Source of the DNA: a bacterium
GTDB taxonomy: Bacteria; UBA10199; 2-02-FULL-50-16; JAJFLM01
Assembly (NCBI GenBank): GCA_965216315.1
Contig: CBDCFN010000015.1
Coordinates: forward strand, 160,001-224,000
Reading direction: 5' to 3'
DNA: 64,000 bases
Each line of letters starts with the position of its first letter. Position 1 is the stretch's first letter. The position numbers and the translations under genes were made by a program. The notes below the pieces were generated by a model. It was not told the origin of the DNA. It made no database searches and worked only from the letters and a program-made list of their open reading frames with translations. Positions 128 through 61,730 of the stretch are shown here, piece after piece.

Positions 128-569
128 GGAAGTGGGCCGATAAGCCGGGTTCTGTCTCCGCCGCAGGCAGATGATGATCATTTATCTGGGACGGCCATTA
201 CTGACCGCCTCAAGCATCCTACCCATCCTGGCGAAAGAGGACTTTGTGAATTCCGCAAAGCCTTCTTAACTTGGCCGGACCGACCTCAAACCAGAACCTA
301 TTTGGACTTGCATCCCGTGGGGTTTAGCTGATTTCACTACAGCATTGTTTCACAAACTGAAAGCACAGCTTCCAGTTTGCTAAAGTCATGGGGCGAGAAA
401 ACTCTCTCCCCCCTGACAACCCCCCATCGTGTTAGCAATGGGGCAATCTGTACATACTTTCTGTTCCACTTTCCGTCGCCTCACGGCGCCCGGGAGTTAC
501 CCGGCACGGTGTCCTGTGATGCCCGGACTTTCCTCCCCATCTCTCGGGGCGATCATCTGGCCCACTTCC
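128..569 (-). ncRNA. rnpB: RNase P RNA, apparently lacking P13/P14 and carrying an insertion in P12
   Basis: Minus strand has GAGGAAAGTCCGGGC, GAAAGTGGAACAGAAAG, CTAAACCCCAC..GCAAG and ACAGAACCCGGCTTAT. The ends GGAAGTGGGCC/GGCCCACTTCC pair as P1. Confidence 0.95.
347..435 (-). repeat. Double-hairpin repeat family A, copy 1 (inside rnpB P12)
   Basis: CGATGGGGGGTTGTCAGGGGGGAGAGAGTTTTCTCGCCCCATGAC..GCAAACTGGAAGCTGTGCTTTCAGTTTGTGAAAC; homologous to 3725-3808 and 60499-60584. Confidence 0.85.
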
Positions 570-3667: not shown

Positions 3668-3724
3668 AATCGTAGCTCCCTATATCACTAATATTATCGT
3701 CAACCCGATCGTTCCAATTCCGTC

Positions 3725-3808
3725 GTTTCACCAACTGAAAGCGCAGCTTCCAGTTTGCTCTAGTTAGGGGCGAGAATCCTCTCTCCCCCTAACGACCCCC
3801 ATCGTTAG
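3725..3808 (-). repeat. Double-hairpin repeat family A, copy 2 (directly after the dnaG stop)
   Basis: CTAACGATGGGGGTCGTTAGGGGGAGAGAGGATTCTCGCCCCTAAC..GCAAACTGGAAGCTGCGCTTTCAGTTGGTGAAAC. Confidence 0.85.
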
Positions 3809-5584
3809 TTAACCCCCGATTAAAAGCCTATTATGCTCCGTCATCAGCTCTATGACGCGACCGGTATCGGCCTCAGCCTCGGCCTTTCGAAGCTGGCTCG
3901 CCAAATTCTGTCGTTGCGCCACGAGATGTTGGCGCTGCAAGCGCTGTCGACAGGAAGTCACCAAATCTTCCGCTTCCCCGGCGTCAACGCTTGAATCAGA
4001 CAGGAGCAGTTCGGTCAGTTCCTGACTCAAACCCTCGTCTGCCAGCCCCCCCAGGATTTCGGCAGGCGACCGTCCTTGGTCCAGGGCCGCCTGAAGGCCA
4101 GGCCACAGCCCGCGTAGGACCGTATGCTGCCAATCCCCGGCTTCCAGCTCGTCACGAAGGGCCGCAGCCCCTTCCACATTAGATAAAACCGCTCTTAAGA
4201 GGTCTCGTTCAAAGGGAGTGAGACGCACGCCCTTATGACGCCGAGCGTCAATATCATCGGCCGGTGCCTGTACAAAGTTGCGTCCTCTGTGCCCTAGAGC
4301 CGTTATCTCACGCCGGATCACCGCCTCCGTAAGGCCTAATTTTGACGCAAGTCTCTGAATATACAAGCCTTTTTCGACTTCTTCGACGATGCGCGCTAAC
4401 TGAGGCACGAGCTTACGGGCCGCCTGGACCTTGCCGACGTTGTCTGCGGGGCTCTGGGCCACCACTTTATCGATAAAATAATCCATCAATGCGGGTGCCG
4501 CCAGGAGTCCCGCCCCAAAATTTTCCCGGCCCTCGGTGCGGATAAAGCTATCCGGATCCTCCCCTTCGGGCAGGGAAAAAATGCGCGTCGGAATCCCCAG
4601 TGGGCTCGTCGTCTCCAGGGACCGCCAGGCCGCCTTGAGGCCCGCCTGATCCCCATCAAAGATCACGACGAGTTCTTGGGAGTGGCGACTGAGTCGTTTG
4701 ACCTGGTCCGCGGTCAACGCGGTACCTAAAGGGGCAACGGTATGAGTGAATCCATGCTGCGCCAGGGCCAGGACGTCCATATAGCCCTCAACAATCAAGG
4801 CCTGCTGGGCTTCGCGCAACGATGTCCGCGCCTCGAAGAGACCATAGACCTCACGCCCTTTGTGATACAAAGGCGATTCCGGCGTATTAAGATATTTGGG
4901 TTGTTGGTCGTCGCTGAGACTCCGCCCGCCAAAGGCGATGAACTGACCCGCACTGTTGCGGATGGGAAATATCAAGCGCCCCCGAAAAAAATCAAAATAG
5001 TGACCATCATCCCCGCGACGTAATAGGCCGACCTTTTCAGCCAGTTCCAGGGGAACCTTTTTTGACTCAAGATAGCGTGCGAGTTCACGGCCACTCGATG
5101 GGGCAAAGCCAAGCAAAAAATGCTGCGCCGTACGCGCTTCGATGCCCCGTTGCTTTAAGTAGTCCGCTGCCTGCCGACCCGAACCGCTCTCATCGTGGAG
5201 TTGATTAAAATAGAATTCGGCGGCCAGGTGATTGACGCGCGCATACCGCTTCTTAAGCTGGAGCGATTGGGTCTCATCATTGCGACCGTCAAAGCGAATG
5301 TCCACGCCGACTCGCTCGCCAAGCGCTTGCACCGCCTCCACAAAGGAGATGCCTTCAAACTTCATTAAAAAAGTGAAAACGTTTCCGCCTTCTCCGCAGC
5401 CAAAGCAGTGAAAAATCTGCTTATCGGCATTGACCATAAAAGACGGCGTCTTCTCAGTATGGAAAGGGCAGAGACCCTTATGGTTGCGCCCCGACTGCTT
5501 GAGAGGCAGATACTCCGAGACAAACGCGACGATATCGACGCCTTCGCGGATCTTTTCCAGCTGTTCGTCTGGAATGAGGCCCAC
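3809..5584 (-). CDS. dnaG: DNA primase
   Basis: Zinc finger CPFHTEKTPSF/CFGC, KYLNTPE, TOPRIM motifs VEGYMD and FDGDQAG, and DPD. Confidence 0.97.
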   Translation of the reverse strand: MGLIPDEQLEKIREGVDIVAFVSEYLPLKQSGRNHKGLCPFHTEKTPSFMVNADKQIFHCFGCGEGGNVFTFLMKFEGISFVEAVQALGERVGVDIRFDGRNDETQSLQLKKRYARVNHLAAEFYFNQLHDESGSGRQAADYLKQRGIEARTAQHFLLGFAPSSGRELARYLESKKVPLELAEKVGLLRRGDDGHYFDFFRGRLIFPIRNSAGQFIAFGGRSLSDDQQPKYLNTPESPLYHKGREVYGLFEARTSLREAQQALIVEGYMDVLALAQHGFTHTVAPLGTALTADQVKRLSRHSQELVVIFDGDQAGLKAAWRSLETTSPLGIPTRIFSLPEGEDPDSFIRTEGRENFGAGLLAAPALMDYFIDKVVAQSPADNVGKVQAARKLVPQLARIVEEVEKGLYIQRLASKLGLTEAVIRREITALGHRGRNFVQAPADDIDARRHKGVRLTPFERDLLRAVLSNVEGAAALRDELEAGDWQHTVLRGLWPGLQAALDQGRSPAEILGGLADEGLSQELTELLLSDSSVDAGEAEDLVTSCRQRLQRQHLVAQRQNLASQLRKAEAEADTGRVIELMTEHNRLLIGG

Positions 5585-60064: not shown

Positions 60065-60196
60065 TAAAATTACGCCCACTTTTTGACAAAAGCTGGAAAA
60101 AAAATTATCCGGTGCGCGCCTGATCCCACTCACGCCTGTTAGAGAATATCCTTATAATTCATATAGATAGATCTAAATAACCCTTTAGACCTTAGT

Positions 60197-60212
60197 TGGC
60201 ATGCGAATTGAA
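60197..60212 (+). promoter_or_regulatory. Possible sigma-54 promoter
   Basis: TGGCAT-GCGAA-TTGAA (non-canonical -12), with 18-bp boxes at 60061-60078 and 60094-60111. Confidence 0.45.
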
Positions 60213-60229
60213 TAGTACAAAGTGCACAT

Positions 60230-60448
60230 ATGGGATCATTACTTGAAATATCGACAGTCAAAAAGTGCCGCGTCTTCTTTGAAAAGACCTGCGATGAACA
60301 GGCACGCTATTTTTTCAGTGCCTATGTCCAATTGCCGGATCACACGCAGTTTATCATGGACGACCGCCATCTTCCTCGCCTCAAAAAACGGATCCATGCC
60401 GTCTTAGAGGTTCTCGCGTTCAGCGGTTCAGTACCTTTAGAAGTTTAA
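60230..60448 (+). CDS. Small hypothetical protein
   Basis: 72-aa ORF just downstream of the sigma-54-like motif. Confidence 0.5.
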   Translation: MGSLLEISTVKKCRVFFEKTCDEQARYFFSAYVQLPDHTQFIMDDRHLPRLKKRIHAVLEVLAFSGSVPLEV

Positions 60449-60456
60449 TTTGTAGT

Positions 60457-60498
60457 TTATACCTTTACGGACGCGTCAAAGAGCCGGGCATGCTCGTC
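60457..60498 (-). pseudogene. Duplicated, synonymously recoded 3' end of dgt (DEHARLFDASVKV*)
   Basis: 34/42 nt identical to 60585-60626; all 8 differences are at third codon positions. Confidence 0.85.
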
Positions 60499-60584
60499 GA
60501 TTCGCAAAGCGAAAGCGCAGCTTCCGCTTTGCTTGAGTCATGGGGAAGAAAACTCTCTCCCCCCTGACAACCCCCCATCGCGAG
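60499..60584 (-). repeat. Double-hairpin repeat family A, copy 3 (directly after the dgt stop)
   Basis: CTCGCGATGGGGGGTTGTCAGGGGGGAGAGAGTTTTCTTCCCCATGAC..GCAAAGCGGAAGCTGCGCTTTCGCTTTGCGAATC. Confidence 0.85.
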
Positions 60585-61730
60585 CTACACCTTAACAGAC
60601 GCATCGAAAAGCCGGGCATGCTCTTCCAAAGCAAAGCGGTCAGTCATGCCCGCGATATAATCGCAGACAACGCGCTCGACACGGATATCATCGACTTTGT
60701 GACTGACATCGGCGGGTAGGATGTTGGGGTTTTTGCAATAGGCGCGAAAGAGATCTTCTAGGATGAGCTTCGCCTTCTCAGCCATACGTTCCACGCGAAA
60801 ATGTTTATAGAGTTTGCTATATAGAAACGCCTTGAGCTCTTTATTGGCGTGTTTCATTGTCGCCGAAAAGCCAACGCATTTGGCAGCGGCCTGCCGAACA
60901 TCCTCTAAACTACTAATGTCATGCGTCTCAATCGTTGCTTCCGTCGTTTGAACGAGGTCGGTTACCAGGGCATTGAGAATCGCCTTGACTGTTTGTCGTT
61001 GATGAACGAGTTCATGCTCGGAACAAGTCGCGCGCGTTTGTTCATAATGCTCCTTCCACAGGCTCACCTCTTGTAATTGCTCAACTGTAATCAGGCCCGA
61101 ACGCAACCCGTCATCTAAGTCATGGCTATTGTAAGCAATCTCATCGGCGATATCGACGAGTTGGGCTTCCAGTGTCGGTTGACCAATTTTTTGAAAGGCC
61201 GCTTGGGATTCATCATAAGACGTCGCGTGTTTGGCAATACCTTCGCGAACCTCATAACTGAGATTCAGCCCCGGAAAATCGGGATACCGTTTTTCAAGCA
61301 AGGTAACAATTCGTAGTGACTGCTTGTTATGCTCAAAACCCCCGAACTCTTTCATCAAATGATTCATGACATCCTGACCGGAGTGCCCAAAGGGAGTATG
61401 CCCTAAATCATGTGCCAGAATAATCGCTTCAGCGAGTTCTTCGTTGAGACGCAGCGCTCGCGCGATCGTCCGCGCAATCTGTGAACCTTCTAAGGTATGC
61501 GTCAGGCGCGTCCGGTAGTGATCACCTTCATGGAAGACAAAGACCTGCGTCTTATATTCAAGCCTTCTGAAGGCATTGGAATGGATAATACGATCACGAT
61601 CGCGTTGAAAAGCCGTTCGATAAGTGTGCTCTGGTTCTTCATATTCACGACCCTGCGAGGCCTTGCTCTGACAGGCATAAGGAGCCAGCATCTTGGTCTC
61701 TAAATTTTCATATTCCTGGCGGGTTAACAC
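60585..61730 (-). CDS. dgt: Deoxyguanosinetriphosphate triphosphohydrolase
   Basis: FQRDRDRIIHS, RTRLTHT, AHDLGHTPFGH and DYIAGMTD. Confidence 0.95.
   Translation of the reverse strand: MLTRQEYENLETKMLAPYACQSKASQGREYEEPEHTYRTAFQRDRDRIIHSNAFRRLEYKTQVFVFHEGDHYRTRLTHTLEGSQIARTIARALRLNEELAEAIILAHDLGHTPFGHSGQDVMNHLMKEFGGFEHNKQSLRIVTLLEKRYPDFPGLNLSYEVREGIAKHATSYDESQAAFQKIGQPTLEAQLVDIADEIAYNSHDLDDGLRSGLITVEQLQEVSLWKEHYEQTRATCSEHELVHQRQTVKAILNALVTDLVQTTEATIETHDISSLEDVRQAAAKCVGFSATMKHANKELKAFLYSKLYKHFRVERMAEKAKLILEDLFRAYCKNPNILPADVSHKVDDIRVERVVCDYIAGMTDRFALEEHARLFDASVKV

Follow-up and report, generated by a model that had tools for sequence, protein, structure and literature searches.

Two described systems come closest to the locus reported here, at which the 3′ end of a dgt-like gene lies on both sides of an 86-nucleotide (nt) hairpin element that we call family E. 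The locus is in a 64,000-nt window, the whole stretch of DNA analysed (positions 160,001 to 224,000 of contig CBDCFN010000015.1, assembly GCA_965216315.1). The first system is the mobile open reading frames (mORFs) of fungal mitochondrial DNA (mtDNA). According to the parts of Beaudet et al. (2013, PMC3630166) considered here, mORFs in atp6, atp9, cox2 and nad3 of Glomus, and in atp6 of Allomyces as cited there, carry a foreign C-terminus. The order is gene core, inserted C-terminus, mobile insert and, downstream, the native C-terminus, which resembles that of close relatives; the gene ends share 64-81% DNA identity and 91-100% protein identity (PMC3630166). The second system is the ‘insertion with long target duplication’ of restriction-modification (RM) genes (Furuta, Abe and Kobayashi 2010, PMC2853133). 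As described in the passages of that paper considered here, the repeats are longer than 30 bp and variable, and the single-copy target possibly overlaps a gene 3′ end. The insert contains no transposase or integrase, relatives have empty sites, the mechanism is given as unknown, and the species are mostly naturally competent. The published duplications are near-identical, e.g. 44/46 and 47/47 (PMC2853133).

Family E resembles mORFs in that a diverged, protein-conserving end is fused to the gene, with the presumed native end downstream. In those parts of the mORF paper, a LAGLIDADG or GIY-YIG endonuclease drives the move, whereas the E insert is a non-coding stretch of hairpins, 86 nt long, with no endonuclease detected next to it. 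Moreover, E sits in a bacterial chromosome instead of fungal mtDNA; 5′ ends, ends of transfer RNA (tRNA) and transfer-messenger RNA (tmRNA) genes and terminators are duplicated too, and many of the duplications are identical. With the RM insertions, as far as those passages describe them, it shares a long repeat (41-42 nt at dgt), single-copy empty sites of the family in other genomes (G083/G036, G059 and G008) and an insert without a mobility gene. Unlike these insertions, which bring kilobases of RM genes and are each unique, E is a multi-copy, structured, non-coding repeat of 86 nt. The divergence seen here is also silent-only, of which the passages considered report none.

Two versions of the dgt 3′ end flank the element

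The dgt-like protein carries the Pfam domains HD (4.1e-15) and HD_assoc (4.2e-28). On the minus strand, the end of the gene with its functional tail (copy A) is followed by 86 nt (60584-60499) and then by a second, displaced tail (copy B; Table 1). The codons of copy A (60626-60585) are GAA GAG CAT GCC CGG CTT TTC GAT GCG TCT GTT AAG GTG TAG, and those of copy B (60498-60457) are GAC GAG CAT GCC CGG CTC TTT GAC GCG TCC GTA AAG GTA TAA. A repeat search gave the pair 60458-60498 / 60586-60626 as 83% identical at a spacing of 128 nt, a number not divisible by 3. Altogether the tails are 81-83% identical in DNA and have 12/13 residues in common. In a scripted codon count over the 14 codons, the 8 nt differences were distributed as 0/0/8 over codon positions 1/2/3. 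Seven codons differ silently, TAG/TAA included, and a single replacement, E/D, is found at the first codon. A preliminary description of this DNA, made from the letters alone, had listed the duplication across the repeat, the restriction to third codon positions (8/8 in our count), the seven synonymous changes with the stop among them and the E-to-D change at the junction; all of these are correct in every detail. When 8 changes were placed randomly in 20,000 trials, the probability of at most one replacement was 3.5e-4 and that of all 8 at position 3 was 1e-4.

Because the codon pattern is silent-only, the tails are allelic and not a decaying target duplication: judged by their codons, they are two different alleles of the same gene end. 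In its own frame, copy B is open for 26 codons only, back to a stop within the element, and the sole start codon in this stretch is TTG. Copy B is therefore read here as probably untranslated. Simple readthrough from the gene, which the preliminary description had ruled out by the spacer length, is excluded because of the 128-nt spacing and the stop inside the element in the copy B frame.

At the dgt end, 0 terminator-like sites were found, and the search for a promoter role gave 1 promoter-like site against 0.9 expected by chance; both roles were rejected on these counts. Immediately before the duplicated tail, the dgt segment that encodes ...CDYIAGMTDRFA (60618-60667) shares 84-89% DNA identity with orthologues throughout the class; such conservation would make it a good anchor for recombination between diverged genomes. 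Hairpin 2 and the dgt sequence that directly precedes copy A share an 8-nt microhomology, CGCTTTGC; it did not recur at other loci inspected by eye and was dismissed as chance.

Table 1. Positions of the dgt-like gene, its two tails, the E element and the other hairpin families (plain numbers, window; C15 and C16, contig positions)
Feature	Position	Strand	Remarks
dgt-like gene (dNTP triphosphohydrolase family)	60585..61730	minus	intact open reading frame, 381 aa; TAG stop at 60587-60585
functional tail, copy A	60585..60626	minus	13 final codons EEHARLFDASVKV + TAG; joined to gene body
86-nt double-hairpin mini-element, family E	60499..60584	minus	left end 0-5 nt past stop; right end ...GCGAATC abuts copy B
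hairpin 1 of element	60537..60568	minus	G-rich stem GTCAGGGG.../...CCCCATGAC; fold and compensatory changes
hairpin 2 of element	60504..60532	minus	13-bp stem, invariant apex GGAAGC-TGC-GCTTTC; fold and compensatory changes
displaced tail, copy B	60457..60498	minus	DEHARLFDASVKV + TAA; joined to downstream intergenic DNA
further element E copy	346..436	minus	without flank duplication
further element E copy	3722..3812	minus	without flank duplication
family XY	C15:135437-135647, C15:247536-247725, C15:400225-400406		tag GGGGCTTGCGTCGCCCC ... CCTCCCCCTCTCGCTCGC
family XY, further loci	C16:391403-391631, C16:752048-752220, C16:1841496-1841699
family Z	C15:333759-333997, C16:359186-359403		flanked by duplicated 3′ ends

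Assembly support

The locus was compared with public contigs from three runs of one study, which is probably the source sample. These contigs cover 60100-60539 and 60551-61100 without a difference, and each junction between element and tail lies within a contig. One 61-nt public contig (60511-60571) bridges the middle of the element. Among the public contigs, none joins across an element-less site and none spans the whole element, and the long-range continuity rests on the assembly. Run X1 (sediment) contains only pieces that are less than 90% alike at the conserved 60610-60680 motif and is uninformative on the host organism.

Two strains or loci could in principle have been joined through the repeat during assembly, and the 30 copies of the element, the breaks of public contigs inside it and a depth of about 4x would favour such an error. 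On the other hand, both junctions lie within read-built contigs with 0 differences, and the 61-nt contig bridges a middle that is specific to this copy. Whatever the joining, a piece of dgt tail does lie beside the element. The same architecture is also found at at least 10 loci here and in the assemblies of at least 14 other genomes. An artefact is thus the least probable of the explanations that we weigh.

Structure and distribution of family E

The element folds into two hairpins with -51.1 kcal/mol (z = -5.7), and in an alignment of 21 copies, 12/21 predicted pairs show compensatory double changes. The 86-nt insert contains no open reading frame (ORF). A search with nhmmer found 30 copies at E<1e-5 in the 2.96-Mb genome, and over 81 nt another copy shares 95% identity with the dgt element. 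The element ends sharply on the right (...GCGAAT plus one base), and the left side lacks a conserved arm beyond CGATGGGG. One copy (C15:361331-361471) is longer by about 45 bases, which are inserted in the hairpin 2 loop region.

Rfam covariance models gave 0 matches up to E=10 in 60300-60800. In a search with a covariance model of the element itself, family E was detected in 39/93 genomes of the class, its own genome included, and in 0/2 genomes of the same family (93% and 80% complete).

In 13/30 copies, 0-2 nt separate the right end from a terminal base of a tRNA or tmRNA gene, of which the genome has 46. Eight of these docked copies face a 5′ end and five a 3′ end, most of them without flank duplication (examples: L090, L100, L101, L102; C16:1184730, C15:5868, C16:507003, C16:1326501). 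This suggests that the right end of E has a structural target preference for tRNA and tmRNA termini.

Duplicated gene ends recur in the genome

The preliminary description had asked whether other copies of the repeat carry recoded gene-end duplicates or whether dgt is a one-off. We compared 200 nt on each side of all 30 E copies, with mismatched flanks as controls. Seven of the 30 copies scored at or near the 99th percentile of the controls. Five are clear, and two are ambiguous as they involve neighbouring tRNAs or other repeats; at the remaining 23/30 copies, flank duplication is absent. Besides dgt, the clear cases comprise 46 nt at the 5′ end of a secA-like gene, where the copies differ by 3 silent changes, and three RNA genes: two for tRNA-Ala, duplicated in their 3′ parts with 53/53 and 55/56 matches, and the tmRNA gene, whose 5′ end matches at 54/57. 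A genome-wide search for direct repeats of 25-150 nt at a spacing of 20-450 nt revealed two more hairpin families, XY and Z, with the same kind of duplication at 8 protein-gene ends or junctions. The dgt locus is accordingly no one-off, with at least five such E copies here as well as other families and other genomes. The duplicated segments (dgt, secA-like, tRNA-Ala, tmRNA, TldD-like and others) are mutually unrelated.

Ten coding duplications around hairpin mini-elements, comprising 166 codons, have 57 nt differences that fall as 5/5/47 on the codon positions. Counted by codon, 47 differences are silent and 5 are replacements; in 20,000 random trials the mean was 40.4 replacements and the minimum 29. 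All displaced 3′ tails keep their stop at the same position, often as a different stop codon, and all displaced 5′ pieces keep the start codon. No frameshifting indel occurs in the coding parts. The more diverged cases show conservative replacements and retain starts or stops. Since displaced copies show no consistent direction of GC or AT bias when inspected by eye, mutational decay is not indicated.

These data bear on the simplest reading of a direct repeat around a repeat element, namely a plain target-site duplication followed by independent drift, with copy A selected and copy B decaying neutrally. Young identical duplications do exist. However, neutral decay would be spread over the codon positions, in contrast to the distributions at dgt and at the ten loci, and it would have produced about 40 replacements where 5 are seen, without sparing stops and reading frames. 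We regard plain duplication and drift as very unlikely. The preliminary description had likewise argued that both copies evolved as coding sequence and do not represent a decaying target-site duplication, and the codon pattern, with its mark of purifying selection, upholds this.

At C15:247536 the element-distal 37 nt of the duplication differ at 1 site, and the last 8 codons are strongly diverged, with silent changes, two replacements and one in-frame codon indel. This pattern looks like a crossover within the duplicated stretch.

Further features of the duplications were noted. On both sides of XY elements lie 37-68 nt of a gene 5′ end, a 3′ end or a gene junction, and the two copies differ silently. 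Their middle hairpin shares a GGAAGC...GCTTCC apex with hairpin 2 of E, and XY and E adjoin in the tRNA and tmRNA cases. At one Z locus, the mnmE-like tail ...FSRFCLGK* is duplicated over 71 nt with 11 silent and 2 replacement codon differences; at the other, with the tail DGWHILTKALITGYM*, 5/5 codon differences are silent. Where 5′ ends are duplicated, the functional copy has a good Shine-Dalgarno sequence (GGAG, AAGGAG) in the short spacer by the element, and the displaced copy is mostly without one (L105, C16:335023-335118, and flanks; C15:135495-135520, C15:400264-400290, C16:391470-391495; L115:1490-1510). The spacer at the secA-like gene also gives rise to a mini-ORF of 3 codons; its stop and the start codon overlap.

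Displaced 3′ tails stand in a constant phase to the element end, in E in 4/4 cases (CGA ATN, then the first duplicated codon; window 60457-60503, L118, L120, L130), in XY in 2/2 (C16:1841494-1841570, C15:247536-247600) and in Z in 2/2; the chance of this is about 1 in 243. At the mnmE-like locus (168-nt spacing), the displaced tail shares the frame of the gene, with a single TAA in between. Both observations could be taken to mean that the displaced tail is still functional, through bypass or readthrough translation, within a small ORF, or as a spare end used again regularly whenever recombination between the two copies removes the element. The dgt tail, however, is out of frame at 128 nt and its 26-codon frame has no ATG or GTG. 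Among the loci there is no consistent in-frame arrangement either, as the spacings are 128, 155, 166 and 168. A function of the displaced tail therefore seems improbable to us.

Recurrence in other genomes and the resident copy

Copies of family E in other genomes were examined in two samples. The first contained 31 copies at 29 loci, of which 6 score at least 20 with the right copy at most 8 nt from the right end of the element; L127, seen by eye at score 16, is a seventh case. In the second, 10/42 scored copies satisfy the same criteria, and one of these, L241, may represent two tRNA paralogues. Over both samples, 16/73 scored copies have a duplicated gene, tRNA or tmRNA end at the right end of the element. 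The duplicated pieces are protein 3′ ends (TldD/PmbA-like, peroxiredoxin-like), 5′ ends (lepA-like and others), 5′ or 3′ parts of tRNAs, and terminators. Their length varies from 20 to 76 nt, and in every clear case the right copy begins at most 9 nt from the right end of the element. L120 and L115 each show 4 replacements of the R/K, D/N, E/D and L/I types beside silent changes.

For some of these loci the congeners possess the site without the element. Complete empty sites were found at three loci (L118 versus G083 and G036, L130 versus G059, L127 versus G008), where the two flanks are co-linear with the congener and overlap in the one copy that it has of the duplicated stretch. For L115 versus G004, only the displaced copy and the adjacent upstream DNA match, and the far side is on another contig. 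The displaced copy runs co-linearly into the flank of the congener at all four loci, and for this reason we take it to be the resident one there. When the sites at which the two copies differ were compared with the congeners, those agreeing with the displaced versus the functional copy numbered 6 versus 2 (L115), 2 versus 1 and 1 versus 1 (L118), 2 versus 2 (L127) and 0 versus 0 (L130). At loci with congeners there is thus a weak trend, in the direction to be expected if the functional end were the diverged, imported one. The similarity of the copies stops at the coding boundary: the spacer of 5-21 nt that separates the functional stop from the element shows no relation to the DNA past the displaced stop.

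For dgt itself, a metagenome scan yielded 75 loci with relatives, the best of them at 75% amino acid identity and with a tail that reads LEEHARLFDPAVKV. A scan of genome collections gave 57 dgt loci that reach at most 59% over the full length, apart from one partial match of 64%, and by their titles these belong to other phyla. Neither dgt tail can be assigned to a donor, because the collections searched contain no close dgt relative (best 75% amino acids).

Possible origin of the duplicated ends

Three features argue that one copy came from another allele at the diverged loci: the stop of similarity at the coding boundary, the crossover-like pattern at C15:247536, and the identity of 95% between elements compared with 81-83% between the dgt tails. 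Our tentative preference is for a one-sided, homology-anchored insertion, in which the element entered together with the dgt end of a relative and the resident tail was displaced. A piece of DNA from a diverged relative, consisting of the dgt 3′ end, a few spacer bases and the element, would have entered by recombination. On the gene side, a homologous crossover would have taken place within dgt. On the other side, the fixed right end (...GCGAAT-C) would have been attached within the resident gene, 41 nt ahead of its stop. The gene would then be completed by the imported tail, and the resident tail, pushed past the element and still on its native downstream DNA, would persist as an untranslated fossil. 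From these observations we infer that the functional dgt tail was imported, that one event brought both import and insertion, and how the ends were joined. The genome encodes ComEC, which we count in favour of a one-sided insertion, beside the reported occurrence of long-target-duplication insertions mostly in naturally competent species. The preliminary description had also proposed that the repeat arrived with a diverged gene end and displaced the resident one. Recurrence and the co-linear displaced copy at four loci speak for the displacement; the joint arrival is one possibility.

Several observations weigh against a one-sided insertion. The longest run of identity shared by the two dgt tails is 14 nt only, which is short for a RecA-type crossover. 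Behind dgt, a second tail or an element is found in 0/71 ortholog loci with at least 100 nt of downstream sequence, so that no donor-like arrangement was seen. The vote of the congeners for the displaced copy as the native one is weak, at 11 versus 6 sites with 7 matching neither in the five comparisons. Across the middle of the element, continuity comes only from the assembly itself and the one 61-nt public contig, and no nuclease or recombinase could be tied to the element. Finally, 6/10 duplications of the second sample are perfectly identical (20-56 nt, a non-coding terminator included), and the tRNA-Ala duplications here are identical or nearly so. Since so many young duplications are identical, the duplication is often made from the target or from identical DNA. 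Duplications that are usually born identical fit a target duplication from resident DNA as well as an import from a sibling cell.

The identical cases lead to a serious competitor, which we consider quite possible. A target duplication of 41 nt, identical at birth, would have come first, and a later allele exchange with a diverged, element-less dgt would have overwritten one copy. The conversion tract would stop at the element, where homology ends, and the silent differences would be the ordinary divergence of functional alleles; in this form the explanation is nearly as likely. Identical young duplications are common (6/10; tRNA-Ala 53/53 and 55/56), and the long and variable lengths (20-76 nt) are like those of the published ‘insertion with long target duplication’. 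Additionally, donors without the element should far outnumber donors with the element at the same site, and the coding-like look of both copies is accounted for as well. On the other hand, two events are needed at most diverged loci, with each tract ending exactly at the element. The original duplication must also have ended at the stop codon, because the post-stop spacer is unrelated. At C15:247536, the exchange would have to be confined to 24 nt by the element, an odd outcome for a tract without homology on that side.

The one-sided insertion could also be taken a step further, to a reading that we find doubtful. Family E and the other two hairpin families would be protein-less ‘homing cassettes’ that spread between diverged genomes because every copy takes with it the recoded end of a host gene that is essential or conserved. 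The gene end might serve as homology arm and replacement part at once, so that insertion never breaks the gene, and a host or trans-acting nuclease might set the sharp right end, which docks at tRNA termini.

Relation to other repeats and recombination systems

Small structured bacterial repeats include REP/BIME, ERIC, BOX, Correia, RPE and MIRU. Family E shares with them tens of copies of less than 150 nt, hairpins with compensatory changes, a location at gene boundaries and the lack of an ORF. To our knowledge, these repeats have short target duplications or none. E has no terminal inverted repeats, no positive association with Y1/RAYT and no Rfam match. Miniature inverted-repeat transposable elements and other elements derived from insertion sequences differ from E as well, in that the ends of E are not alike (CGATGGGG... 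versus ...GCGAAT) and its duplications are variable (20-76 nt) and absent at 23/30 copies.

Integrase-mediated elements such as phage 21 and e14 in icd reportedly rebuild the 3′ end of their target, which is a tRNA, tmRNA or protein gene. As in such elements, an element-borne copy would complete the gene and displace the resident end, and the tRNA duplications span the anticodon-stem region to the 3′ end. In contrast to them, the E insert has no integrase, the targets are many and unrelated with no single att core, and 5′ ends are duplicated as often as 3′ ends, over lengths of 20-76 nt. In homology-facilitated illegitimate recombination, one end of an incoming linear DNA is joined by homology and the other by an illegitimate join (PMC3240628). 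A similar process would give the gene-side crossover and the sharp junction at the end of the element. Its known products are deletions or replacements of recipient DNA and not duplications, and it is not known to be linked to a specific junction-forming repeat. Keyword searches of open-access text returned no report from bacteria of hairpin repeats that lie between gene ends with silent divergence.

If a one-sided insertion is true, tiny non-coding repeats can spread inside bacterial lineages and from one lineage to another although they bring no transposase, via recombination that is anchored in conserved gene ends. The fossil gene ends would record the resident allele and point to a new mechanism of repeat spread and to cryptic exchange of gene ends between lineages of uncultivated bacteria. 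It would account for stray gene-end fragments met by annotators and would tie bacterial repeats to the mobile ORFs that replace gene ends in mitochondria. The fossils could serve as natural markers to date insertions and to measure recombination, and the precise docking of the right end at tRNA termini as a handle for finding the responsible enzyme.

Search for a mobility enzyme

As a sign of an autonomous partner, we looked for right-flank sequence that is repeated 0.25-4 kb leftward and found it in 0/59 E copies if one pair of adjacent tRNA genes is set aside. Five segments of 0.5-4.4 kb that lie between repeats, with 8 ORFs, encode a DUF protein, a cytochrome b-like protein, a HEAT-repeat protein and a tyrosine-integrase islet, and none of them encodes a homing endonuclease. 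Y1_Tnp occurs in 29/39 genomes with element E versus 49/54 without it, and in none of the genomes with 13 and 15 copies. A Y1/RAYT transposase as the mover of E was rejected, as there is no positive association across the 93 genomes.

Two of the loci inspected carry integrase- or transposase-like genes beside repeats of other kinds. L151 (C16:1039400-1044500) is a 4.4-kb islet between 77-nt direct repeats that are 95% identical. It encodes a tyrosine integrase (Phage_integrase, 8.8e-17) and a nucleotidyltransferase-like protein (NTP_transf_8) and is an ordinary integrative element, unrelated to E. L153 (C16:1212300-1214400) contains the single, weak Y1-transposase-like ORF of the genome (31 bits, open frame of 258 aa), ringed by 56-60-nt direct repeats of other sequence; it may be a RAYT-like gene with repeats of its own.

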